Translations under genes and position numbers: made by a program | NCBI GenBank assembly: GCA_903898185.1 | Contig: CAIUEN010000268.1 | Location: 1-55,535, forward strand | Length of the DNA: 55,535 nucleotides | From: an uncultured Verrucomicrobiales bacterium | Lineage (GTDB): Bacteria > Verrucomicrobiota > Verrucomicrobiia > Limisphaerales > Palsa-1400 | Direction of reading: 5' to 3' | Shown here: one piece after another, positions 123 through 55,535 of the stretch | Position numbering within the stretch: position 1 is the stretch's first letter | Layout: every line of letters starts with the position of its first letter | The notes under the pieces: model-generated | Seen by the model: only the letters and a program-made list of their open reading frames with translations | Told to the model about the DNA's origin: nothing | The model's database searches: none

Positions 123-441
123 AAATCTGAGATGCGCACGTCAGCAAGCCGCTAATACAATTTAGCTTGTGTCGTCCGCTTCTTTTCTCTCAGTAGTTTT
201 TGATGTGTTGGCATTCTTTTCTGAGAGTGGGTTTCTGTAAAGCTCAGCCTGCGCCTATTCGGCGCTTCATGTAAACAGCACTTTAAAGAAACAGCGTGCC
301 GTCTTGCCTTGGCGTTTTGCGGTTTCAAAGAGGCTGCGCAGGACTCTGTGATTTTCCAAGCCTTTGTCGCGCGTTTGGCAAGGGCAAACAGATGGCCGCT
401 CAGAGGATCGCCTTTGAGTCGGCTGCGCACCAGATCGCTCA

Positions 442-750
442 TCATTGAGCCATTGAGCGCAGACGAAATTGAGACTGCCGAGAGAGATTGGTGAAAAGCA
501 TCGAAATGAGATACCCAGCTTTTGCATTCCCAGAACAGGCCACAATCACCCCGTTACAGTTTACTTTGTCGGCTACCCCGGGGATGTGAAGAGTGACTGT
601 CATTTCCGTCCACGGCGACATAGGCTGCTCGCTGTGGAACTCAATGCCGCTTTTTCTAACACAAACCTTGTCGGCGGCGAGCATCAGGCATTTGCCAGGC
701 TCATCTGCCGAGCCAAACAAAATCGCATCATCAGTTTTTCTTGCTCCCAT
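442..750 (-). CDS. PilZ-like domain protein (non-canonical)
   Basis: 102-aa ORF. The segment order SGIEF .. VTLHIPG .. NGVIVAC .. ISMLFTNLS follows the PilZ beta-barrel pattern. The N-terminal RxxxR c-di-GMP motif is not visible. Confidence 0.4.
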   Translation of the reverse strand: MGARKTDDAILFGSADEPGKCLMLAADKVCVRKSGIEFHSEQPMSPWTEMTVTLHIPGVADKVNCNGVIVACSGNAKAGYLISMLFTNLSRQSQFRLRSMAQ

Positions 751-794
751 ACTTTGTTATACTAGCACTTGTTTTGCGCGTGTCAATTTTCTGA

Positions 795-1829
795 TTACCA
801 CTCGATTATTGCCGCGCCCCATGTAAAACCGCCGCCAAACACCACCATGAGAACCAAATCGCCGCGCTCAATGCGTTTGGCATGAAGGGCTTCATCCAGC
901 GCTATGGCCACCGAGGCGGCCGATGTGTTGCCGTACTTCTGCAAATTGATGAAAAACTGATCAGTGCTGACTTTGAGACGGTCGGCCACAGCCTGAATGA
1001 TTCGCATATTGGCCTGGTGTGGCACGATCAATTTGATCTGGCTGATATCCAAATTGCAGCGGCGGAGCGCTTCCTGGGCGGCGGAACACATGCCAGTGAC
1101 AGCGTTCTTATAAGTTTCCTTGCCGTCCATTCTCAAATAATGCATGCCAGCGGCCAGCGATTCGTGCGACACGGGAATTCTGCAGCCACCGCCCGGTTGG
1201 CAGAGCACATCGGCTTGGGAGCCGTCAGCTCCCATGCAGGCTGTCAGCAGTCCGTGCGAGTTGGGACGGTTTTGCAGAACCGCAGCGCCCGCGCCGTCGC
1301 CAAACAACACGCAGGTGTTGCGATCTGACCAGTTCACGATGGACGAAAGTTTTTCCGCGCCGATGACTAAAACAGTGTCGTAGGTGCGGGACATGATAAA
1401 CTGCTGGCCAACTTCCAAGGCATAAATGAATCCGGAGCAGGCGGCTTTGAGATCGAATGCCGCCGCGCGCTTGGCGCCAATTTTCTGTTGCACCAGGCAG
1501 GCGGTGGAAGGAAACGGCATGTCCGGGGTGATGGTTGCCACAATGATCAAATCAACCTGATCGGGGCTGATGCGCGCGCGTTCGAGCGCCTTGGTGGCGG
1601 CCCGGGCCGCCATGTCCGAGGTGAACTCGCCTTTGCCGGCAATGCGCCGTTCTTTGATGCCCGTGCGCGTTGTGATCCATTCGTCGGAAGTATTGACGAT
1701 GACGGCCAGTTGCTGATTGGTCACCACCCGACTGGGAACATAAGAGCCGACCGAAATAATAGAGCAGGTTCGGCCTTGGAAATTATGTTTTGATCGAGGG
1801 TTGGTGAACTTTCGCGGGGGCAGAATCAT
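795..1829 (-). CDS. fabH: 3-oxoacyl-ACP synthase III
   Basis: 344 aa with SYVPxRVVTNxxL, TGIKERR, the active-site Cys context AACSGF, HQANxRI and C-terminal GGGFTWGA. It overlaps plsX by 4 nt, and the order rpmF-plsX-fabH is conserved. Confidence 0.95.
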   Translation of the reverse strand: MILPPRKFTNPRSKHNFQGRTCSIISVGSYVPSRVVTNQQLAVIVNTSDEWITTRTGIKERRIAGKGEFTSDMAARAATKALERARISPDQVDLIIVATITPDMPFPSTACLVQQKIGAKRAAAFDLKAACSGFIYALEVGQQFIMSRTYDTVLVIGAEKLSSIVNWSDRNTCVLFGDGAGAAVLQNRPNSHGLLTACMGADGSQADVLCQPGGGCRIPVSHESLAAGMHYLRMDGKETYKNAVTGMCSAAQEALRRCNLDISQIKLIVPHQANMRIIQAVADRLKVSTDQFFINLQKYGNTSAASVAIALDEALHAKRIERGDLVLMVVFGGGFTWGAAIIEW

Positions 1830-2860
1830 AAGGCACTGGCGACTTTGGTTTCGGCGATGCGCGCATTGGCCTGCGCGATTTCACGGCGGATGGTTTCGTT
1901 GAGCTGGTTTTGCACCGCATCGGTTGTGATGCGAATGGCATTCATGATCGCTCGTTCTCGCGCCGAACCGTGAGCTTTCATAATTGTTCCGTTGAGACCG
2001 AGCAGGGGCGCTCCGCCGTAGGCATCGGGGTCCATGCGGCGTTTGATGGTGGTGAGCGCCCGACTTGCCAGGAGAGCGCCAAGCATGCTCACAGGACTTT
2101 TTTTGAGTTCGTCTTTGAGCCAGCCGGCAAGGCCGCGCGCAAAGCTCTCAATTGTCTTCAGGACAATGTTCCCGACAAAACCGTCGCAAATGACCACATC
2201 AACCTTGTTATGGAACAGGTCGTGGCCTTCGACATTGCCGATGAAATTGATATCGACCATTTTACAAAGGCGATAGGCCTCGATGGTCAGTTCCACGCCT
2301 TTGTTGGGCTCAGTGCCGTTGCAAAGAATGCCCACCCTGGGCTTGGAATATCCTAGGACATCCCTGGAATAGATATGGCCCATGATGGCAAAATGCAGCA
2401 GGTGGGTTGGCCGACATTCGACACTGGCCCCCGAGTCCAGCAGCACAAATTCATTTTCCGGCGCCGGGATGACGCTGGCAATTCCAGGACGATCCACGCC
2501 CGAAATTGGGCGCAAACGAATAGTGGAAGCGGCGACCAACCCGCCAGTATTACCCGGCGAAATCAGGGCATCGGCCACACCCTCTTTAATCAGATCGACG
2601 GCACGAAGAATCGAACAATCTTTCTTGCGGCGCAGGCCTTCGACCGGCTTGTCCTCCATCGTCAGCACTTCGCTGGCGTGAACAATCCGAACTCTGGAAT
2701 CAGTACAGCCAGTGCTCTTGAGAGCGGTCTTGATTTGACCTTCATCCCCTACAAGGTATAGCTCGGTGATTCTTGCGCCCGACTCCAATGCAAGCCGGAC
2801 CCCGTCGATGATGACCTCGGGGCCGTGATCTCCACCCATCACATCTACGACGATTCGCAT
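1826..2860 (-). CDS. plsX: phosphate acyltransferase PlsX
   Basis: 344 aa. The N-terminus MRIVVDVMGGDHGP and the overall length are typical of PlsX. It sits between rpmF and fabH. Confidence 0.95.
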   Translation of the reverse strand: MRIVVDVMGGDHGPEVIIDGVRLALESGARITELYLVGDEGQIKTALKSTGCTDSRVRIVHASEVLTMEDKPVEGLRRKKDCSILRAVDLIKEGVADALISPGNTGGLVAASTIRLRPISGVDRPGIASVIPAPENEFVLLDSGASVECRPTHLLHFAIMGHIYSRDVLGYSKPRVGILCNGTEPNKGVELTIEAYRLCKMVDINFIGNVEGHDLFHNKVDVVICDGFVGNIVLKTIESFARGLAGWLKDELKKSPVSMLGALLASRALTTIKRRMDPDAYGGAPLLGLNGTIMKAHGSARERAIMNAIRITTDAVQNQLNETIRREIAQANARIAETKVASAL

Positions 2861-2910
2861 AAACGAAAAGAGCGCAGGATCAGAAAAAATTCGGCGCTCT
2901 CAAGTTGGAT

Positions 2911-3096
2911 TTACGCTACTTTGACTGAAATGACTTGTCGGCCCTTATAGAAGCCGCAAGCAGGGCATACTCGATGCGGCACGAATGGCTCGGCGCATTG
3001 GGGGCACTTGGACAGTTGTGGCAGGGTCATTGCGCTATTGTAAGCGCGACGTTGGCGTTGGCGACTATGCGATGGCTTGCGTTTAGGAACTCCCAT
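2911..3096 (-). CDS. rpmF: 50S ribosomal protein L32
   Basis: 61 aa. It starts MGVPKRKxSHSRQRQRR and carries a CxxC..CxxC zinc ribbon. Confidence 0.95.
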   Translation of the reverse strand: MGVPKRKPSHSRQRQRRAYNSAMTLPQLSKCPQCAEPFVPHRVCPACGFYKGRQVISVKVA

Positions 3097-3110
3097 AAAT
3101 TATTCTTTAT

Positions 3111-3593
3111 TCAAAATTTCAGTTTATTCAACTCGGACCAAGCCGACGCATTTTCAGTCTGACTGGTGTTTTGCTTCTTTGCTATCTGACCTGTGCGTCC
3201 GGACAGTCCGACGCATTCACTTTTACACAGCGGATGCTGCGGAAACTCAAGTAGAATATCTTCCCGAAGGTAAGGCGTCAAGTCCACGCAGTCATTAAGG
3301 ACTGGAACCTTCTCCTCACCTTCCAAAGGCAGGTGGCAGATCCAATCCGGAAATTCGACCGGGTAATCGAACGTTTTGAGGCAGCGAACGCATTCGCAGC
3401 GGAGGATTATTTTGATCCAGCCGCGCAATAGTATCTGTTCGCCCACTTGCTGAGCGGTCAGCGCGTATTGCAGGGGATTCACTGCGTGAATCACCTCGTC
3501 CAGTTGGTCCAAGCCCACCTCGGCCGCCGGCAATTCACCGGCCAGCTCGACTTGCTTATCCTCCAGGTGGTGGAGGTTCAATTTGAGCGACAT
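3111..3593 (-). CDS. YceD/DUF177 family protein
   Basis: 160-aa acidic protein directly upstream of rpmF, the conserved position of DUF177. It has internal CxxC and a C-terminal Cys cluster. Confidence 0.8.
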   Translation of the reverse strand: MSLKLNLHHLEDKQVELAGELPAAEVGLDQLDEVIHAVNPLQYALTAQQVGEQILLRGWIKIILRCECVRCLKTFDYPVEFPDWICHLPLEGEEKVPVLNDCVDLTPYLREDILLEFPQHPLCKSECVGLSGRTGQIAKKQNTSQTENASAWSELNKLKF

Positions 3594-47539: not shown

Positions 47540-47604
47540 TCAAACAGGATTGGCGGAGAGGGCAAGAAAACTAACAGGCACATTTGGAGCAACCCAAAGA
47601 ACAA

Positions 47605-47777
47605 AAGCGATTCTCATTATGTGGGGTAGACCTCCGGTCTGCCAGCACCTCGTTATCGAGGTGCAGTGATTAGTTGTGCTGACTGTTGCGGTGCCTCCGG
47701 CTCCGCTGGGAGTCGAACGCTTCGTGCGCAGGCAGATCAGCGTCTTTCCCCTTCCTTGCTCAAAATGAGAATTGCTG
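47605..47777 (-). mobile_element. MITE family R2, copy D (long variant, reverse orientation)
   Basis: Its reverse complement aligns end to end with copy A, including the ~40-nt internal hairpin module. One terminal repeat has 2 substitutions. Confidence 0.8.
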
Positions 47778-47987
47778 TGCGCACAAAAGCGTTGCTTCAT
47801 GCAGGAAGGTTTTCTACTGTAACCTTGTTAAACAAATGCTCTGCATTCGGGTAAATCATCGATGATCAAGAACTTGGGATGGCAACGGGTTGCAAAGGGT
47901 GTTTTGCGGAAAAGACCGCGAAGCATTCACGGGGCGGTAGCTTGTCTTGGCATTGGGATGTAGAATTTCGGCAACTATTCTAAGACA

Positions 47988-48224
47988 ATGAAAACGATTC
48001 CCGAGATTGCAAAGGATGCGTTGGAGCTGCCCACCGCTCAGCGCCTGACCTTGGCGCGCATTCTTCTTGATCTGTCCGATGAACCTCAGGAATTCTCGCC
48101 TGAAGTCCAAGCCGCTTGGGATCAAGAGCTTTTGCAACGCATCGAAGAGGTGAAGGCTGGACGCTCCCGGTCCAGCAGTGTTGATGAAGTATTTGCCCGA
48201 TTGGATCATCGATTTTCTAAATGA
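47988..48224 (+). CDS. addiction-module antitoxin component (ParD-like small helical type)
   Basis: 78 aa. ALELPxxQRLxLAxxLLDSL...W..E..RR pattern. It overlaps the toxin gene by 4 nt. Confidence 0.75.
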   Translation: MKTIPEIAKDALELPTAQRLTLARILLDLSDEPQEFSPEVQAAWDQELLQRIEEVKAGRSRSSSVDEVFARLDHRFSK

Positions 48225-48523
48225 AGGTTGAGATTCTTCACGAAGCAGAAGAAGAACTCGACGCCGCTATTGAGCATTATGAATCTGTCCAACCAGGGTT
48301 GGGACTGCGGCTCAAAGAAGAAACGCGCCAGCGGATTCTGTGGATAAAAAACAATGCCACCGTAACACGCTTGTTGCCTAAGGGATATCGGCGGGTGAAC
48401 TTGAAGGTGTTTCCCTATTACATCCCCTACTTCATTTGGAGTGATACAATTTGGATTCTCGCCCTCGCTCATGCTCACAGGCGTCCACAATATTGGATCA
48501 AAAGACGTGCCAATCTTCCCTAA
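48221..48523 (+). CDS. RelE/ParE-family toxin
   Basis: 100 aa. AExELxxAxxxY, FPYxIxY and ILALAHxxRRPxYW are typical of ParE-like toxins. Confidence 0.8.
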   Translation: MKVEILHEAEEELDAAIEHYESVQPGLGLRLKEETRQRILWIKNNATVTRLLPKGYRRVNLKVFPYYIPYFIWSDTIWILALAHAHRRPQYWIKRRANLP

Positions 48524-48578
48524 ATCAAGATTTGAAATCCGAAATCTTGAATTTCAAATCACCTCCATCGTTCTCTCA

Positions 48579-48626
48579 ACTTTCCTATTTTCTGCTTTCT
48601 GCTTTCCCAATTTCTGTTTTCCTTCT
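48579..48626 (+). repeat. CTTTCTG-type heptamer array a
   Basis: ctttcctattttctgctttctgctttcccaatttctgttttccttc. It ends 6 nt before the hicB ATG. Confidence 0.9.
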
Positions 48627-48632
48627 TAAATT

Positions 48633-48884
48633 ATGGTTGCTCAATACATGGATACAGCAATGGAACTGGCGCGTTACGAGATCATCCAAGACGACAATAG
48701 TTACTGGGGAGAGATTCCCGGTCTTCAAGGTGTCTGGGCCAAACACGACACGCTCGCCGGATGCCAGCGCGAACTAAGAGAGGCTTTGAGTGATTGGATA
48801 GGCTTGCGCTTACGATTGGGCCTTCAGATTCCCGAATTGGCTCGCATCAACCTCAATCAAATTGGCACAATTGCCCATGCCTAA
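48633..48884 (+). CDS. hicB: HicB-family antitoxin
   Basis: 83 aa. YxGEIPxLxGVWAxxxTLxxCxxELxEAL pattern of short HicB/UPF0150 proteins. Confidence 0.8.
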   Translation: MVAQYMDTAMELARYEIIQDDNSYWGEIPGLQGVWAKHDTLAGCQRELREALSDWIGLRLRLGLQIPELARINLNQIGTIAHA

Positions 48885-49095
48885 ATTGGCCCCGATTTCG
48901 CGCAGGAAATTCATTCAGAACCTGCGTCAACTTGGATTTCAAGGCCCTTACTCGGGAGGCAAGCACCAGCAAATGATGCGAGGCGATGCTACTCTCATTA
49001 TTCCGAACGAACACGAAGGAGACATCAGTCCAGGTTTCCTCCTTCGGTTGCTCCGGCAAGCTGGCGTTTCCCGAGAAGAATGGCTAAGTCTCTAA
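48877..49095 (+). CDS. hicA: HicA-family mRNA interferase toxin
   Basis: [27 protein letters not shown]. The ATG at 48877 overlaps the hicB stop by 8 nt. Confidence 0.8.
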
Positions 49096-49176
49096 CTTCC
49101 GTTTTCCCCAATTTCTGTTTTCTGCTTTCTGCTTTCCGCTTTCTGCTTTCTGCTTTCCAAATTTCTGCTTTTCTTT
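49096..49176 (+). repeat. CTTTCTG-type heptamer array b (longest tandem run)
   Basis: ttttctg ctttctg ctttccg ctttctg ctttctg ctttcca aatttctg. It ends 2 nt before the rfbB ATG. Confidence 0.92.
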
Positions 49177-49178
49177 TT

Positions 49179-50246
49179 ATGAAAATTCTAATCACCGGCG
49201 GTGCCGGTTTCATCGGCTCAAACCTCGTTCATTGGTGTCTGCGGCACACGGATGCCCAGATCATCAATGTCGATAACCTGACCTACGCGGGCAATCTCAA
49301 TTCGCTGGAGAGCGCCCTGAAGGATCCCCGCCACACGTTTGTCCAAGCGGATATTTGCGACGCCGCTGCCGTGGCGGCCATTTTCACCCAGCATCGCCCC
49401 GATGCGGTGATGCACCTCGCCGCCGAGTCCCATGTGGATCGTTCCATCGACGGCCCGGGCCAGTTCATCCAGACCAACATCATCGGCACCTACAATCTGC
49501 TCGAGTCGGCCCGCAAGCTCTGGCTGCAACGCAAAGAGTCCGATCCAGCCAGCGCGGCGCGGTTTCGGTTTCTGCACGTATCGACCGACGAAGTCTATGG
49601 CTCACTGGGCAACGACGACCCTGCTTTTAGCGAAACGACCCCTTACGATCCGCATTCCCCCTACTCGGCTAGCAAGGCCGCCTCGGATCACCTGGTCAAA
49701 GCGTGGTTTCACACCTACGGTTTTCCGGCGCTGGTGACCAATTGCTCGAACAACTACGGCCCTAATCAATTTCCGGAAAAACTCATCCCGGTCGTCATCA
49801 TCAAAGCGTTGCGCGGCGCGCCAATCCCCGTCTATGGCAAAGGCGAAAACACGCGCGACTGGCTCTATGTCGAGGACCATGCCAGCGCTCTGATGACCGT
49901 GCTGGATAAAGGACGCCTCGGCGAAACCTACAACATCGGCGGAAACAACGAGGTTCAAAACATCGACCTGGTGCGCCGCCTCTGTTCGACTCTCGACGAA
50001 CTGCGTCCCCGTTCCGACGGCAAGAGCTACGCCGACCAGATCACCTTTGTGACCGACCGCCCCGGCCACGACCTCCGCTACGGAATCAACGCCGAAAAAA
50101 TCCGTTCCGAGCTCGGCTGGCAGCCCAAAGAAAGCGCCCGCAGCGGCTTCAAAAAGACCGTCGATTGGTATCTCAATAACACCGCTTGGTGGGAATCCAT
50201 TTTATCAGGCAAATACCAATTGCAAAGATTGGGGACGGGAAAATGA
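49179..50246 (+). CDS. rfbB: dTDP-glucose 4,6-dehydratase
   Basis: It has the Rossmann motif [15 protein letters not shown] and the catalytic YSASKAASD. The start is set at 49179 because the computed ORF extension only reads through the repeat array. Confidence 0.93.
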
Positions 50247-50439
50247 ACCCTTTCTTACAGAAGGTAACGAAGGAAACAAAGGTTTGTGGTTCTAGCACCA
50301 AGAACCATTGCTACAAAGATCGGGGATAAAGCGGGTCAAAGGCGCAGCGATTCTCATTTTGGGAGGAAAGCCGTAATACCCAATATTCAATGGAAGATTC
50401 CCACCTCCGCGCTCTCCGCGCCTCCGCGTGACTGAGGTT

Positions 50440-50695
50440 GAATATCCAATATCGAACAAGGAATTTCCAATAATGAAGTAGAAAAGCGGCCACCGCCAAG
50501 TTCAGTTCCAGTGCAGCAAAGGAGTTTGCGATATCGTTTGCGATACAATAGAAAGAGCAAAACAGCAGGCACGATTGATAATGTTGGAGTGGGGTCACCT
50601 TCCGCGTTCCGTATTCTGCGATTTCAATTGCCAATTCCAAGTTTGATGGCTCCCCACTTCATTATTGGACATTCCTTGTTCGATATTGGATATTC
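50440..50695. repeat. 40-bp inverted repeat pair (1 mismatch) enclosing 176 bp
   Basis: The reverse complement of 50440-50479 (gaatatccaatatcgaacaaggaatttccaataatgaagt) matches 50656-50695 except at one base. A third related unit lies at 50377-50404, and a ctccgcg x3 run at 50405-50428. Confidence 0.88.
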
Positions 50696-50704
50696 TTCCT
50701 CTGC

Positions 50705-51001
50705 ATGCATCTAAAGGATTATAAAGAGGATATGATCCAGCGGTTGAAGGATCCTGAATACGCTGCGGAATACCTTTCCCAGGTTCTGGCGGAAAAAGAC
50801 AGCGCAGCTTTTTTGATTGCCCTCAAAGATGTGGTCGAGGCGGCAGGCGGAATGAGCCAACTGGCTGAGCGCGTGGATATTAAACGTCCGAACCTCTACA
50901 AAACACTCTCAAAAAATGGCAATCCCCGTTTCAACACGCTCCAGGAAATCTTAGGCTCTTTGGGGATGCGCGTTTCGGTCGAGTTAGACAAAGTCGCGTG
51001 A
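50705..51001 (+). CDS. HigA-type addiction-module antidote protein (orphan)
   Basis: 98 aa. PxxAAxYLxxxLxxxDxxxFxxALxDVxxAxGMSQLAxxxxxxRxxLYKxLSxxGNPxFxTLxxxLxxLG is the antidote-protein pattern. There is no intact toxin gene upstream. Confidence 0.8.
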   Translation: MHLKDYKEDMIQRLKDPEYAAEYLSQVLAEKDSAAFLIALKDVVEAAGGMSQLAERVDIKRPNLYKTLSKNGNPRFNTLQEILGSLGMRVSVELDKVA

Positions 51002-51054
51002 TCGGATCTGTAGCGCAAATGAAGTTGTCAAAGTGTTGAACCAAGTTACGCTGA

Positions 51055-51285
51055 ATGAAGACGATTGAACTGATGGCAGTAAACCCTGGGTTGGACGAAC
51101 TGCTGGAACTTGCTCGCAAGGAATGCGGTTTGCGGCTAACCAGGCTCGGCCAGACTGTGGCTGAGGTCATTCCAACAAATATCCAACCGATAAAACGGAT
51201 AACTCCTCTTCACCCCGGAACCTGGCAGGTTGGCGAAGACTTTGATCAGCCTCTGCCCGAAGGCTTTTGGATGGGAAGAGAGTGA
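51055..51285 (+). CDS. VapB-type antitoxin (1)
   Basis: 76 aa. The C-terminal DFDQPLPEGFW tail is like the second antitoxin at 53682. It overlaps the PIN toxin gene. Confidence 0.7.
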   Translation: MKTIELMAVNPGLDELLELARKECGLRLTRLGQTVAEVIPTNIQPIKRITPLHPGTWQVGEDFDQPLPEGFWMGRE

Positions 51286-51668
51286 AATTGCTGATCGACA
51301 CTCATGCCCTTATTTGGTGGGACGAAAACCCCGAACGCCTCGGCTCAGAGGCATTGGCAGCTTGCCTTGATACTGGCAATGAGTTGTGGTTAAGCGTGGC
51401 GAGCGTCTGGGAAATACAGATCAAAATAATGTTGGGACGTCTCGCGTTGTGCAAGCCGCTGAGGCAGTTGATTAGTGATCAGATCAAACAAAATGGAATG
51501 CTGATTTTGCCTGTGAAATTCGAGCACGTTTTGAGGTTGGAATCCCTGCCGGATCGACATAAAAATCCCTTTGACCGTTTGTTGGTGGCCCAAGCCTTGG
51601 AGGAAAATTGTGTGCTGGTAACTCTCGATCCAACTATCGCGCAGTATCCTGTAACCACAATTTGGTAA
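51267..51668 (+). CDS. vapC: PIN-domain toxin VapC (1)
   Basis: It has LLIDTHALIWW, SVASVWEIQIK and HKNPFDRLLVAQA. The likely true start is the GTG at 51282, which overlaps the antitoxin stop (GTGA). Confidence 0.85.
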   Translation: MDGKRVKLLIDTHALIWWDENPERLGSEALAACLDTGNELWLSVASVWEIQIKIMLGRLALCKPLRQLISDQIKQNGMLILPVKFEHVLRLESLPDRHKNPFDRLLVAQALEENCVLVTLDPTIAQYPVTTIW

Positions 51669-51717
51669 CCAGCCCTCCATATAGCTATCCCATTTTCCTG
51701 TCATCGTCCTGCTCTTT

Positions 51718-51836
51718 AAGATTTCTGCTTTTGATTAGACCTTTCCGCTTTTTTATTCCTTGTGAAATTTCTGCTTTCTACTTTCCCAATTTCTGCTTTC
51801 CCTTGGCAGATTTCTACTTTCTGCTTTCTGCTTTCA
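51718..51836 (+). repeat. CTTTCTG-type heptamer array c (overlaps the start of the beta-barrel gene)
   Basis: aatttctg ctttcta ctttccc aatttctg ctttccc ttggcag atttcta ctttctg ctttctg ctttcaa. Confidence 0.9.
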
Positions 51837-53024
51837 ATATCTTCTTCTGTCCGCGCCCAAGAAGCCCTGCGCATGTCCCTCGCCAGCGAAGAAGCCGCCC
51901 AAGCCCGCCACGATGCCTCCCAATTGGGCTACTGCAACATCAAGTTCAGATCCGTCACCGCCCGTGTTCAGGCGTATGCGGGGGTCGAGTACATCGACAA
52001 TGTTACCTACTCCACCACAAAGCCTGAGAGCGACGTTGCCCTCCGCGCTGGCCTCAACATTCAGAGCCTGTGGCCGATCTCCGATCTCAACAGCCTCTAC
52101 CTCTCCACCGGCGCCGGCTACATCAAGTATGCCCAGATCGGTTCAGCGGATTCCCCCTACATCACCCCCAATTCCGGCATCCTGTTCCAGATGTACTCGG
52201 GCGATTTCCTCATCAACCTCCACGACCGATTCTCCCTGATACAAAGCGGCTCGCAGAACTCCACCGTTAATTCCATTTTTGGATATGATCGGCTTCAAAA
52301 CACCTTGGGCGCAAATGTCGATTGGGATCTCAACGACCTGATTCTCTCCGCTCAGTACGATCACGACCTGTTGATGGCCACCCAGCCCGCATACAAATAC
52401 GTCAATCGCAATTCCGATTTGCTCTCCACCCGCGCCATGTACGACTTGAACCGTAGAGTCTCGGTCGGACTGGAGGCCGCCGGCGGATTGACCTACTACG
52501 ACCAACAGCGGTTCCCGAATAATAATTACTACAGCATCGGTGCCGCGAGTGTGGTCAAGTTAAGCCAGTTTCTCAAAGTGCGCCTTTCCGCCGGATGGGC
52601 CGATTACACGTTCGACTCCCCCCCCACCAATTCCAACTCCAACCTCGGCAGCGACCAGAACTCCTATTACGCAAAGGCATCGATCGATCACCAGTTAACC
52701 CGATTCATCTTCCATTCCCTCACGCTCCAGCACAACTTGGGCTTGGGAGAATGGTATGCCGTAGGCAACCTCGATACAGCAAGCTACTCAGTGACTTGGA
52801 CAGCCGATGCCCGCCTGACCGTCTCGGGATCTTTCTACTACTCCACCGGAGATATATACAACCCAGCGAAAGAAAGCCTCACCTGGTTTGGTCCCAGACT
52901 GGAAGTCCAGTATCATCTCGGCCCCAAGCTGTTCACTTCACTCACATACCAATACTCCCAATCGGAATCCGCAACGACTTACACTCAGAACCGAATCGGG
53001 CTCAACCTGACCTACACATTCTGA
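51762..53024 (+). CDS. outer-membrane beta-barrel protein (family not recognised)
   Basis: 420 aa with alternating-polarity strands rich in Y/G/N/S and the C-terminal signature LNLTYTF (terminal Phe). The only start giving a signal peptide is the GTG at 51762 (MKFLLSTFPISAFPWQISTFCFLLSISSSVRA/QEA). Confidence 0.7.
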   Translation: MKFLLSTFPISAFPWQISTFCFLLSISSSVRAQEALRMSLASEEAAQARHDASQLGYCNIKFRSVTARVQAYAGVEYIDNVTYSTTKPESDVALRAGLNIQSLWPISDLNSLYLSTGAGYIKYAQIGSADSPYITPNSGILFQMYSGDFLINLHDRFSLIQSGSQNSTVNSIFGYDRLQNTLGANVDWDLNDLILSAQYDHDLLMATQPAYKYVNRNSDLLSTRAMYDLNRRVSVGLEAAGGLTYYDQQRFPNNNYYSIGAASVVKLSQFLKVRLSAGWADYTFDSPPTNSNSNLGSDQNSYYAKASIDHQLTRFIFHSLTLQHNLGLGEWYAVGNLDTASYSVTWTADARLTVSGSFYYSTGDIYNPAKESLTWFGPRLEVQYHLGPKLFTSLTYQYSQSESATTYTQNRIGLNLTYTF

Positions 53025-53091
53025 CAATTCTCAGCCAGCATACAGGATTAACAAGATTTACAGGACTGATTTGCCCTCTCCCATTCTCCTT

Positions 53092-53150
53092 CAGTCTTCT
53101 GCTTCTTGTTTTGGCTCTCTGCTTTCTGCTTTCCAAATTTCTGCTTTCAA
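53092..53150 (+). repeat. CTTTCTG-type heptamer array d
   Basis: cttctgcttcttgttttggctctctgctttctgctttccaaatttctgctttcaa, between the convergent beta-barrel and vapC(2) genes. Confidence 0.88.
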
Positions 53151-53225
53151 TTGGAGAACTTGGGAGAAATGGTATGGGACTTTCAGAACCCGAAGTATCT
53201 CCAGCAATGGCTCGATAGAACAAAA

Positions 53226-53254
53226 ACTGAAATAGAAAAAACTGAAAACTGAAA
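53226..53254 (-). repeat. TTTCAGT heptamer mini-array
   Basis: The plus strand reads actgaaa at 53226, 53241 and 53248 (the last two in tandem). On the minus strand this is TTTCAGT, just after the vapC(2) stop. Confidence 0.75.
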
Positions 53255-53298
53255 TCAGTTCCGTAGGGACGCAATATTTGTGGAACTGAGATCCAAAA

Positions 53299-53685
53299 TC
53301 ACCACAACACATTCGCCGGATATTTTGAAAATTCGGGATCGCGGGTCACAATGATCATTCCATCAGCCATCGCTTGCGCGATCAACAGCCGGTCAAATGG
53401 GTCGCGATGATGAAATGGGAGAGATGCCAGTTGAATGAGCTGCCCACAGGAAATAGGGAGGAGTTCAAAACCGTTAACTTCAAGTTGATGGGGGAAAACT
53501 TCACCAAACGGACGTGGCAACTTCAATTTCTCCAGGCTTATCTTAATCGCGATTTCCCAAAGGCTGACCGCACTGACAAACTTATCATTTGCCGGATCTT
53601 CGATGCTCTGGCGTGATGCTTTACTCAATTGCGGATTGTTGCCGATGAACCAAAGCAGCGCGTGGGTGTCCAGCAACAACTTCAT
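53299..53685 (-). CDS. vapC: PIN-domain toxin VapC (2)
   Basis: It has MKLLLDTHALLWF, SAVSLWEIAIK and HHRDPFDRLLIAQA. It is a clear paralog of the toxin at 51267. Confidence 0.88.
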   Translation of the reverse strand: MKLLLDTHALLWFIGNNPQLSKASRQSIEDPANDKFVSAVSLWEIAIKISLEKLKLPRPFGEVFPHQLEVNGFELLPISCGQLIQLASLPFHHRDPFDRLLIAQAMADGMIIVTRDPEFSKYPANVLW

Positions 53686-53912
53686 TTCATGTATTCGTTA
53701 AAATCTTCAAGCGGCGCGTCAAAATCCGGTGCCAGCCAGATAGTTCCCGGCAAACTACCAGCCTGTGCGTGTCGGTGCTTATGAGAAATTGCGGCGGAAA
53801 GTTTGGCCTTTGGCTCGCCATTCTGCGTGATGGTGAACTCCTCGCCGCCCGCCACTTGTTTGAGCAGATCTGCGAGCGAAACCTGAGCCTTTTCAAGAGC
53901 AACCGTTTGCAT
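53682..53912 (-). CDS. VapB-type antitoxin (2)
   Basis: 76 aa with a Phd/YefM-like N-terminus (VSLADLLKQVAGGEEFTITQNGEP) and tail DFDAPLEDF. It overlaps vapC by 4 nt. Confidence 0.8.
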   Translation of the reverse strand: MQTVALEKAQVSLADLLKQVAGGEEFTITQNGEPKAKLSAAISHKHRHAQAGSLPGTIWLAPDFDAPLEDFNEYMK

Positions 53913-53967
53913 AACAGTAGAATACTAACTTACCTTCCCATCGAAGGCTAATCCTTTTGCATCTTTG

Positions 53968-53998
53968 GCGCTCAGATTTCTGCTTTCTGCTTTCGTTT
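53968..53998 (+). repeat. CTTTCTG-type heptamer array e
   Basis: gcgctcagatttctgctttctgctttcgtttt. It abuts the rpn ATG at 54000. The first 20 nt are identical to 55042-55061. Confidence 0.9.
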
Positions 53999-53999
53999 T

Positions 54000-55007
54000 A
54001 TGAATCCTTCGACCGATTTTGATGGCGCATGGAAAGAGGCGTTGGAACAATTCTTCCGCCCCTTTCTGGAATTCTGCTTTCCGGACATCGCCGCCCACGT
54101 CGATTGGTCCAAGGGATTTGATTTTCTGGATAAGGAACTCCAGAAGGTTGTCCGCGACGCCGAGATGGGAACATTGCGCGTTGATAAACTGGTTCAGGTT
54201 TATCGGTTGGATGGAGCCGAAGATTGGCTACTGATTCATGTGGAAGTGCAAAGTCAGACCGACAATGACTTGCCTTCACGGATGTACCAATATCATCACC
54301 GCATAGCCGACCGTTATAAAAAAGCGGTGGTCAGTCTGGCGGTATTGGCAGATGAACACGAAACATGGCGGCCAAAGGTGTATGAGGAATCGAATTTTGG
54401 GTGTTCCTTGCGGTTTGAATATCTGGTCTGCAAACTTCTGGATTATAACAAAGTTCACGGGGCTTTGGATGCCAGTTTAAATCCCATTGCAATCGTTGTT
54501 GCCGCACACTTGGCGGCTCAGGCAACAAGCAGCCAACCGAACAATCGTTACAACCTCAAGCGGCAATTGGCTCGCAGACTCCACGAAAAAGACCACACCA
54601 AACAGCAAGTGATGGATTTGCTTCGACTCATAGACTGGGTCATGACATTACCAAGGGAATTGGAGTTGAAATTTGAGAAAGACATGCTAGCATACGAGAA
54701 AGAACATAATATGCCATTCATAACAAGTTTCGAAAGAATTGCAACTAAAAGGGGCCTTAAGCAAGGCCGTCAGCAAGGCATTAAAAAGGGACGCCAGGAA
54801 GGTCGGCAAGAAGGCATCCAGAAGGGCCTTCAAGCAGGACAGACCTCCCTGATTGTTCGGATGCTCAAACGCCGTTGGGGCACGCTGGATCCGGAGTTGG
54901 AAATCCGCCTTTCAAGCTTGTCCTTGGCGCAATTGGAGAGCTTGGGGGAAACGCTCTTGGAGTTTCGCGCTCCATCTGATCTGCAGCGGTGGCTGGACGA
55001 GGCGTAG
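54000..55007 (+). CDS. Rpn-family recombination-promoting nuclease / YhgA-like putative transposase with DUF4351-like C-terminus
   Basis: 335 aa. It has N-terminal DxxWKEALEQFF, the PD-(D/E)XK core LLIHVEVQSQ and YQYHHRI. The C-terminal segment LIVRMLKRRWGTLDPELEIRLSSLSLAQLESLGETLL is typical of DUF4351. Confidence 0.8.
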   Translation: MNPSTDFDGAWKEALEQFFRPFLEFCFPDIAAHVDWSKGFDFLDKELQKVVRDAEMGTLRVDKLVQVYRLDGAEDWLLIHVEVQSQTDNDLPSRMYQYHHRIADRYKKAVVSLAVLADEHETWRPKVYEESNFGCSLRFEYLVCKLLDYNKVHGALDASLNPIAIVVAAHLAAQATSSQPNNRYNLKRQLARRLHEKDHTKQQVMDLLRLIDWVMTLPRELELKFEKDMLAYEKEHNMPFITSFERIATKRGLKQGRQQGIKKGRQEGRQEGIQKGLQAGQTSLIVRMLKRRWGTLDPELEIRLSSLSLAQLESLGETLLEFRAPSDLQRWLDEA

Positions 55008-55041
55008 GGAAAAGCAGAAATTATTTCAGTCAGCTTTTTTT

Positions 55042-55105
55042 GCGCTCAGATTTCTGCTTTCCCAATTTCTGCTTTTGGTTTTGCAATTTCTGCTTTGGTT
55101 TCTGG
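55042..55105 (+). repeat. CTTTCTG-type heptamer array f
   Basis: gcgctcagatttctgctttcccaatttctgcttttggttttgcaatttctgctttggtttctgg. It is preceded by an inverted unit aaaagcagaaat at 55010-55021. Confidence 0.88.
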
Positions 55106-55331
55106 CCGCAATGACGCCAACGGCGTCAACCATACCAGCCTGGGGCAAGCAAAGCGTCGCCCCAGGTCACAAGCCCCAAAAAACTCACCAGCGCTGAAAG
55201 CGCGAATCATCACACCGCCACTGAGTCGCGCCTACAGCGCTTGACCTCGTTTGCCCCATGTTCCTGGGGCGATGCCCCATAAGCGCTAACTTGTTTATTG
55301 TTTTTTGAAATGCATTGGTTATACTAATGGC

Positions 55332-55535
55332 ATGACAACATACAACGCTGTGGACGAAGACTGGAATCTACTGATGTCCTTTTTCCCGTCAGATTGGAAA
55401 GCATCTGCTTGCAGGACGGGTGCTTTGAAAGGTCTGCGCCAAGATAAATCGGAAGAGAACTACCTGCGAGTTCTATTGATGCATTTGGGTGGCGGCTTTT
55501 CCTTGAGGGAAACCGCCGTGCGCGCCCGACAAGCG
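55332..55535 (+). mobile_element. IS4-like DDE transposase gene, N-terminal 68 codons (cut by window end)
   Basis: MTTYNAVDEDWNLLMSFFPSDWKASACRTGALKGLRQDKSEENYLRVLLMHLGGGFSLRETAVRARQA. The ALKGLR..LLRxLLxHLxxGxSLRETxVRA segment matches my memory of IS4-family transposase N-termini. I could not verify this here. Confidence 0.45.

Follow-up and report, generated by a model that had tools for sequence, protein, structure and literature searches.

A heptamer array of a dispersed repeat family as the probable co-opted signal peptide of an outer-membrane barrel gene in a Verrucomicrobiales bacterium

What does a tandem DNA repeat do when it lies across the first codons of a gene for an exported protein? 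The question is raised by a contig of an uncultured Verrucomicrobiales bacterium (assembly GCA_903898185.1, contig CAIUEN010000268.1), of which positions 1-55,535 are referred to here as the window. Near its end, an array of T/C-rich heptamers runs through the 5' end of an outer-membrane protein (OMP) gene, and an earlier note on this DNA had claimed both that the array encodes the hydrophobic core of the signal peptide and that gain or loss of a unit could switch the gene by frameshift. The evidence below argues for the first claim and against the second: the array is probably a functional, fixed leader co-opted from a dispersed repeat, which would direct export and be cleaved, and would not serve as a high-frequency phase-variation device.

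The open reading frame (ORF) in question, 51762..53024 (+), starts with GTG, encodes 420 aa and has the C-terminus ...LNLTYTF. Downstream of the in-frame stop at 51732-51734, its start codon (51762..51764, +) is the first start in this frame, and the only canonical one before the mature N-terminus, QEALRMSLASEE; the sequence thus bears out the claim that no other in-frame start would provide a leader, and the start context is conserved among strains. The array (51768..51835, +) is built of TTTCTGC/TTTCTAC units and TTTCCCAA-type connectors with a 22-nt super-period, and encodes the n- and h-regions of the predicted signal peptide. Tandem Repeats Finder (TRF) calls it at period 7 (51768-51835, 9.6 copies, 67% matches) and a second time at period 22 (51765-51828). 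With at most one mismatch allowed, the window has 28 matches to the 11-mer TTTCTGCTTTC, where 1.84 would be expected, and none of 100 shuffles reaches 28. In the window allele the longest perfect tandem tract (TTTCTGCTTTCTGCTTTC, 51818..51835, +) measures 18 nt or 2.6 units, and in other strains 25 nt or 3.6 units, the array in the OMP leader being interrupted by TTTCCCAA and TTTCCCTTGGCAGA connectors. Both the presence of a TTTCTGC array in the leader of a barrel ORF and the remark that only two to three units are perfectly tandem are therefore upheld for the window. From the GTG the leader translates as MKFLLSTFPISAFPWQISTFCFLLSISSSVRA↓QEA (the arrow marks the predicted cleavage site), and residues 3-25 are read from the array. 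Since (TTTCTGC)n lacks stops and yields FLLSAFC whichever frame is read, the openness of the frame is not itself proof of coding. Directly 5' of the GTG, sequence inspection and the 11-mer scan revealed a degenerate array remnant and T-rich leader (TTTCTGC TTTTGAT.. TTTCCGC TTTTTTA TTCCTT; 51722..51761, +), which is part of a strain-specific upstream cassette and is absent from three other strain contigs (L001, L130, L133).

Comparison with homologs places the cleavage site. In all 20 homologs with a called leader, a hydrophobic leader is followed by (A/S/G)↓QEAxRMSLASEEAAEAR, and the GTG frame of the window reads VRA↓QEALRMSLASEE, upstream of the ATG chosen by gene callers. The signal-peptide coding region would thus comprise 32 codons (51762..51857, +), with predicted cleavage after A32 (VRA↓QEA) at a position that aligns with ...RA↓QEAxRMSLASEE of the homologs. 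By our own scoring, the features of a Sec-type (signal peptidase I) signal are in place, namely a charged n-region (K2), an h-region and small residues at -3/-1 (V/A or S/A). The best 10-residue Kyte-Doolittle window, ISTFCFLLSI, scores 2.24, compared with 2.42-2.49 in other alleles and 1.79-3.30 in homologs, and the hydrophobic core lies 6 residues before the cleavage site. A lipoprotein signal with a lipobox before Cys21 was rejected, the preceding residues being S-T-F and not L-[AS]-[GA]. The lack of a Shine-Dalgarno-like motif before the GTG is not an objection, because such motifs are scarce in the window (5/37 ORFs).

The automatic gene models tell a different story at the 5' end. Callers start the 383-aa product P0001 at an internal ATG (Met37; 51873..51875, +), which is the Met of the QEAxRMSLASEE motif and has upstream of it codons that are conserved at the protein level. 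All database models of the window OMP (383 aa) and of its closest ortholog, P0002 (384 aa; L002 3001), begin at the Met of the QEALRMSLASEE motif and lack the signal peptide. From the called Met, the true start is 37 codons upstream in the window and 57 codons upstream in P0002, whose leader is a classical one.

Natural alleles of the leader were key to deciding whether it is coding. Strain variants came from ENA lake metagenomes, the runs being examined as assembled contigs, and comprise nine full-length alleles (window, L001, L130, L131, L133-L138; some leaders identical) and the 5'-truncated L132. All full-length alleles keep GTG-AAA-TTT, while the DNA directly 5' of the GTG is unrelated between strains, in keeping with the different toxin-antitoxin cassettes located there. 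Leader length takes two values, both in frame: seven contigs have 111 nt, whereas L131 and L135 have 75 nt. The 75-nt form reads MKFP(I/L)SAFCFLLSL(A/T)SSSRA↓QEA, with a core of three perfect TTTCTGC units, and is by its sequence a textbook signal peptide. Its two representatives differ at 6 of 75 leader positions; four of these changes are synonymous third-position substitutions in SSSRAQE and the other two are conservative (I/L, A/T), a pattern that agrees with the 35 synonymous and 16 non-synonymous differences between the gene bodies of the same pair. Judged by these substitutions, the leader is translated and held in frame under purifying selection. The view that the heptamer array encodes the hydrophobic core is thus backed by the conserved start context, the two in-frame length alleles, the synonymous bias of the leader changes and the homolog-aligned cleavage site.

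Within the array the sixth base of the units varies (Ala from TTTCTGC, Thr from TTTCTAC), and it does so even where contigs show no other difference over ~1.4 kb. Window and L001, for example, are identical over ~1.4 kb except for G/A at 51773, 51780 and 51816, each the sixth base of a unit. Such differences could reflect array-to-array conversion, or assembly noise or mixing within the repeat.

The protein that the leader precedes has every appearance of an outer-membrane barrel. Homologs, AlphaFold2 and Foldseek together define the mature product and stop codon (51858..53024, +) as a BBP2_2-like beta-barrel, beginning with the conserved N-terminal helix QEALRMSLASEEAAQARHDA. Twenty-three homologs were found, and a 22-sequence alignment (27-54% identity to the window protein) was used for AlphaFold2. 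Among the aligned sequences PF10082 (BBP2_2) is matched in 14/22 (best E 1.6e-11) and OMP_b-brl in 6/22; the window protein itself has no Pfam match at E<=0.01. The model (predicted local distance difference test, pLDDT, 84.4; predicted template-modelling score, pTM, 0.76) has ~18 long strands, with a low-confidence helix at 10-29 (the leader), disorder at 27-38 and a helix at 40-54 over the conserved motif before the barrel. The best PDB matches in Foldseek are the 18-strand OccD/OccK porins and the alginate exporter AlgE (E 3e-10 to 1e-8). Model and sequence thus agree on a closed antiparallel barrel with a C-terminal aromatic residue (...LTYTF). Window and L130 differ by 35 synonymous and 18 non-synonymous changes, a non-synonymous to synonymous rate ratio (dN/dS) of roughly 0.17, by which the mature gene body is under purifying selection and the protein functional. 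Given the confident barrel and the low dN/dS, export would therefore be required of a gene that is functional, and the earlier contention that the 420-aa protein is an outer-membrane beta-barrel in need of a signal peptide is supported by fold model and homologs alike.

Several observations weigh against a working array-coded leader. The leader of the long allele is atypical in having 32 residues, with a single Lys 14 residues before the best hydrophobic window and two Pro, one Trp and one Gln between them. Leader hydrophobicity and cleavage were judged by our own Kyte-Doolittle scoring and by homolog alignment, not by SignalP. The repeat itself guarantees an open frame, and the argument from frame maintenance accordingly draws on only two independent length classes and the substitution pattern. 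With a repeat present hundreds of times, assemblies may be chimeric within it, and the G/A unit differences may be assembly noise. Finally, in L138 (345-1495) a 1-nt deletion (cgcagaac to cgca-aac, ~52250 of the window) splits the OMP into 131-aa and 252-aa ORFs, which makes this a pseudogene allele unless the deletion is an error of sequencing or assembly.

If the array is translated, could it also be a switch? A phase-variable contingency locus, in which 7-nt slippage in the leader shifts the frame and turns the barrel off in the manner of the opa CTCTT repeats, has several points in its favor: the 7-nt unit is not divisible by 3, the tract lies within the signal-peptide coding region, and a simulated change of ±7 nt gives out-of-frame truncated products of 90 aa or 156 aa, so that the part of the earlier claim stating that one unit more or less shifts the downstream frame holds. 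The array also changes over evolutionary time, as attested by the two length classes and the G/A unit swaps between contigs otherwise identical over ~1.4 kb. What is not supported is the opa-like switch itself, whose defining long tract and out-of-frame alleles are not found in the assembled alleles. The perfect tract extends for only 18-25 nt (2.6-3.6 units), and all nine full-length alleles keep the frame; their sole length difference, 36 nt, is not a multiple of 7. Contigs joining array to mature sequence from eight lake metagenomes are gapless, one of them with a frame-restoring +1/-1 pair 4 nt apart; neither these junction-spanning contigs, nor the assembled alleles, nor the 5'-truncated contig contain a ±7-nt or out-of-frame leader. 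Four additional runs contributed nothing further. Unit number is constant between strains even in the non-coding sister arrays, where it is free to change. The earlier note had also looked to unit-number differences among orthologs. Orthologs of 39-54% identity have no leader repeats, which it had named as counting against a switch, and the strain alleles do differ in leader length (111 or 75 nt), always in frame. A switch of this kind is accordingly unlikely.

A different alternative is that the array is only a 5' untranslated leader, that translation starts at ATG 51873 without a signal peptide, and that the gene is a decapitated, non-exported relic in which the RAQEALR codons are a fossil. 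Every automatic gene call does start at ATG 51873, yet callers err in the same way on P0002, where a classical leader is plain to see 57 codons upstream. The sister arrays are indeed non-coding and precede start codons, but they do so at 9-15 nt, compared with 37 nt from the array end to ATG 51873. The cassette-island setting of the gene, apart from the Poly_export neighbor that orthologs have, and the strain contig with a frameshift in the gene body would suit a relic, whereas purifying selection on the gene body would not. Nor would an untranslated leader be expected to show coding-type substitutions, with four synonymous third-position changes in SSSRAQE, to conserve GTG-AAA-TTT beside unrelated upstream DNA, or to keep its frame despite a 36-nt length difference. 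We regard this alternative as distinctly improbable. A mis-join at a highly repeated k-mer, which would make the leader an artefact of assembly, has in its favor the ~70-400x over-representation of the motif and the breaking of Logan contigs at the array, but is very hard to sustain when at least 10 assemblies, made from different samples and with different assemblers, independently yielded the GTG-array-mature junction, in two allelic forms, and when Logan contigs from X5, X6 and X8 run gapless from 51767/51770 to 51971-52010.

Where, then, did a translated array leader come from? Orthologs P0002-P0005 (54, 47, 45 and 40% identity) have ordinary leaders, in or before which TRF finds no repeats; with orthologs at 39-54% identity being repeat-free, the array leader is therefore probably a lineage-specific co-option. 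In the proposed history, the arrays would form a family of dispersed, oriented T/C-rich heptamers (TTTCTGC blocks with TTTCCCAA connectors), normally present as an untranslated leader 5' of start codons in a variable cassette island, and the original 5' end of the BBP2_2-type barrel gene would have been replaced at or by one of them. The native h-region would certainly have been lost in this event, and the promoter and leader probably as well. An upstream in-frame GTG would then turn the array into a workable Sec signal peptide, because (TTTCTGC)n is free of stops and reads F-L-L-S-A-F-C in every frame. The resulting signal would consist of a Lys2 n-region, an array-coded hydrophobic core and an S-S-S-(V/S)-R-A↓Q-E-A cleavage region, the last of which (SSS-x-RA↓QEA) may be ancestral or may have been re-selected. 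Synteny between strains breaks directly 5' of the GTG and also inside the array at 55051-55080.

The genomic company kept by the orthologs differs from that of the window copy. A Wza-like Poly_export gene follows P0002 (L003 1802-2542) and P0004 (L140 1512-2101), which suggests a polysaccharide-export role for the OMP family. The window copy has lost this neighbor and keeps a sugar-nucleotide dehydratase gene ~1.5 kb upstream.

The array in the OMP leader is one of at least six, all on the same (+) strand and all within the last 7 kb of the window (48.5-55.1 kb). Three sister arrays precede start codons that are confirmed by full-length Pfam matches (48633, 49179 and 54000). The array at 48580..48621 (+) has its last unit ending 15 nt before ATG 48633 of a UPF0150/HicB-like antitoxin gene; that at 49112..49171 (+), the longest in the window with 6.6 units, ends 10 nt before ATG 49179 of a dTDP-glucose 4,6-dehydratase-like gene; and that at 53977..53994 (+), with 2.6 units, has its last full unit 9 nt before ATG 54000 of an Rpn/DUF4351 protein and shows the same unit number in L133 and L135. 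These arrays are oriented like the genes that follow them and stop at the position expected of a ribosome-binding site. Of the other two, the one at 53114..53148 (+) is an orphan, 90 nt downstream of the OMP stop and followed by no convincing gene; L001 has the identical array, L132/L133 have it with 2 nt changed, and L130/L131 lack it. The second (55051..55101, +) is behind the Rpn gene, and synteny with strain L133 breaks within it. In the 48 kb before the island, with RecJ, TerC, SecDF, YajC and TGT, there is a single one-mismatch 11-mer (minus strand, 10696) and no array.

Short tandem heptamer sets are thus found at many loci, oriented with and directly upstream of start codons, and the family extends well beyond this contig. 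Contig depth over 51764-51811 is about 400-3400, compared with ~3-27 in the flanks (eight lake metagenomes), and dozens of contigs carry the motif between unrelated flanks; as a community-wide figure, the motif stands at ~70-400x single-copy depth. In genome contigs the 18-mer TTTCTGCTTTCTGCTTTC occurs in many phyla among the matches listed, and is not lineage-specific. The 20-mer directly 3' of the array (GTCCGCGCCCAAGAAGCCCT) gave 7 chance matches in metagenome contigs, none of them at the OMP gene. A protein search with an idealized FLLSAFC-repeat peptide, which is insensitive to 3-unit cores, returned only 9 short (58-76 aa) hypothetical ORFs. Array-rich loci in metagenome-assembled genomes (MAGs) belong to Limisphaerales and other Verrucomicrobiota (L085, L084, L057, L046), Gemmatimonadaceae (L049) and Thermoanaerobaculia (L041). 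Their intergenic regions are rich in oriented 7-8-nt arrays of TTTCTGC, TTTCAGC(R), GTGGTCT, CTTCTGC and CTCTGC units, as many as 10 within 6 kb, and an ATG often follows the array end at a distance of 5-30 nt. A 36-nt core with two arrays diverging from it is present in L090 and L120. L090, a Verrucomicrobia subdivision 3 lake MAG, is syntenic with the window at 40.5-45.3 kb (65-74% nucleotide identity), which places the organism near that subdivision.

One RNA contig from a metatranscriptome spans 53964-54039, reaching from the array at 53977 into Rpn coding sequence, although DNA carry-over is possible. For RNA of the 51700-51900 region, folding prediction gives less structure than in shuffled sequences (z = +1.1). 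No Rfam family was at or near threshold on the arrays, and a sigma-70 promoter and terminator scan gave no enrichment over shuffles, a small hairpin at 51792-51810 falling within chance. A comparison of array-end to ORF-start distances with random positions was not used, as internal ATG and GTG codons inflate the control. As a hypothesis only, the sister arrays may be 5'-leader or translation elements. A broader and rather doubtful proposal is that the heptamer arrays (TTTCTGC plus TTTCCCAA; TTTCAGC in sister lineages) are portable 5' leader or translation-initiation modules that travel with, or recombine between, the cassettes of freshwater and soil Verrucomicrobiota, and perhaps Acidobacteriota and Gemmatimonadota; they would offer a ready source of signal peptides whenever a start is captured upstream, and rare unit slippage would provide a low-frequency on/off option.

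The island that houses the arrays (window 47600-55535) is strain-variable and follows the core genes RecJ, TerC, SecDF, YajC and TGT. Toxin-antitoxin cassettes, namely HicB/HicA (48633-49095), an HI1420-type antidote with Phd-like and PIN genes (50705-51668) and PIN/Phd (53299-53912, minus strand), are interleaved with the dTDP-glucose-dehydratase-like gene, the OMP gene and the Rpn/DUF4351 gene. Other strains have other cassettes at the same positions, for instance HicB/HicA where the window has Phd/PIN in front of the OMP; in one strain the dehydratase gene and the OMP have no cassette between them. Synteny breakpoints in the island coincide with heptamer arrays. Integron attC sites were considered as cassette borders and rejected, the borders being direct heptamer arrays without inverted-repeat architecture.

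Other elements share these borders. A second junction element, CCTTCGTT(A/T)CCTTCTGTAA, with 9-nt sub-repeats, is found in the window at 50254-50283 (reverse complement), and at cassette borders on both sides of the OMP in L130, L131, L133 and L136. AAAACTG units at 53222-53258 amount to a TTTCAGT-type array on the minus strand, and a 32-nt palindrome, GATTTGAAATTCAAGATTTCGGATTTCAAATC, lies at 48529-48560. A GC-rich palindromic element at 55100-55290 (…ccagcctggggcaagcaaagcgtcgccccaggt…, …ttcctggggcgatgcccca…), for which Rfam gives only a sub-threshold 'gyrA RNA', is probably another dispersed repeat, because its motif is the unaligned flank of array-bearing contigs elsewhere. The Rpn/DUF4351 gene (54000-55007) is multi-copy in lake metagenomes, with a summed contig depth of roughly 20-400 compared with ~10 upstream (run X1), and is present in metatranscriptome contigs; in L133 a second Rpn/DUF4351 paralog lies directly behind the first, preceded by an array and tttcgttttATG.

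Together, the natural alleles would document how a non-coding, dispersed simple-sequence repeat (SSR) was co-opted as the hydrophobic core of a signal peptide, and array co-option would offer a concrete route to replacing or creating export signals. For annotation, the consequences are that automatic gene calling in this OMP family loses the leader by starting at an internal Met, and that a tempting but unsupported label of phase variation is removed. The arrays themselves make up a highly abundant, undescribed family of oriented heptamers at cassette borders in lake Verrucomicrobia-like genomes, with candidate roles as translation leader, regulator site or recombination site. In the literature searched, no description of TTTCTGC arrays was found, nor any report of a heptanucleotide repeat supplying a signal peptide.

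The array nevertheless invites comparison with several known repeat systems. The opa tracts of Neisseria are long, with about 7-28 CTCTT units, and strains carry out-of-frame alleles. Unlike opa, the array described here has 2.6-3.6 units, is interrupted by connectors, keeps the reading frame in every allele observed, and is part of a dispersed family, not a repeat peculiar to one gene. The two systems have in common a tandem repeat with a unit that is not a multiple of 3, situated in the signal-peptide region of a barrel OMP and encoding hydrophobic residues; for opa, the switching rate is ~1e-3 per cell per generation (PMC3960869).

The (ATCTTTC)n tract of Haemophilus influenzae hmw1A/hmw2A is likewise a T/C-rich 7-nt tandem repeat in the leader of a surface-protein gene. 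The hmw tract is transcribed but non-coding, residing in the 5' untranslated region with at least 11 units in nature, and it forms a hairpin with a G-rich partner that is cleaved by RNase III, such that copy number tunes expression (PMC12721329). In contrast, the array RNA here is predicted to be unstructured (z = +1.1), and the tract is short and, from its sequence, translated. Heptanucleotides as such are the most abundant class of long SSRs in many bacterial genomes, mostly intergenic and dispersed (Mrazek et al. 2007, as summarized in PMC4679880; see also PMC4692102); cyanobacterial short tandemly repeated repetitive (STRR) sequences and long SSRs resemble the TTTCTGC arrays in being heptanucleotide and dispersed, and differ from them in unit sequences and taxa.

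The TAACTGA heptamers of marine Beggiatoaceae, some Cyanobacteria and Bacteroidetes, the nearest analogue so far described, occur in 2-6 copies at many loci, mostly a few nt upstream of starts (MacGregor 2015, PMC4679880). A few of them reach the ORF periphery, and a post-transcriptional or translational role has been proposed, not demonstrated (PMC4679880). The TTTCTGC arrays are like this family in forming short tandem heptamer sets at many loci near start codons. They differ in unit, in their Verrucomicrobiota-like lake host and in their position at the borders of strain-variable cassettes; moreover, forward TAACTGA has stops in all frames, whereas TTTCTGC is stop-free and hydrophobic in all. 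The TTTCTGC arrays are thus an analogue of the TAACTGA family rather than a member of it.

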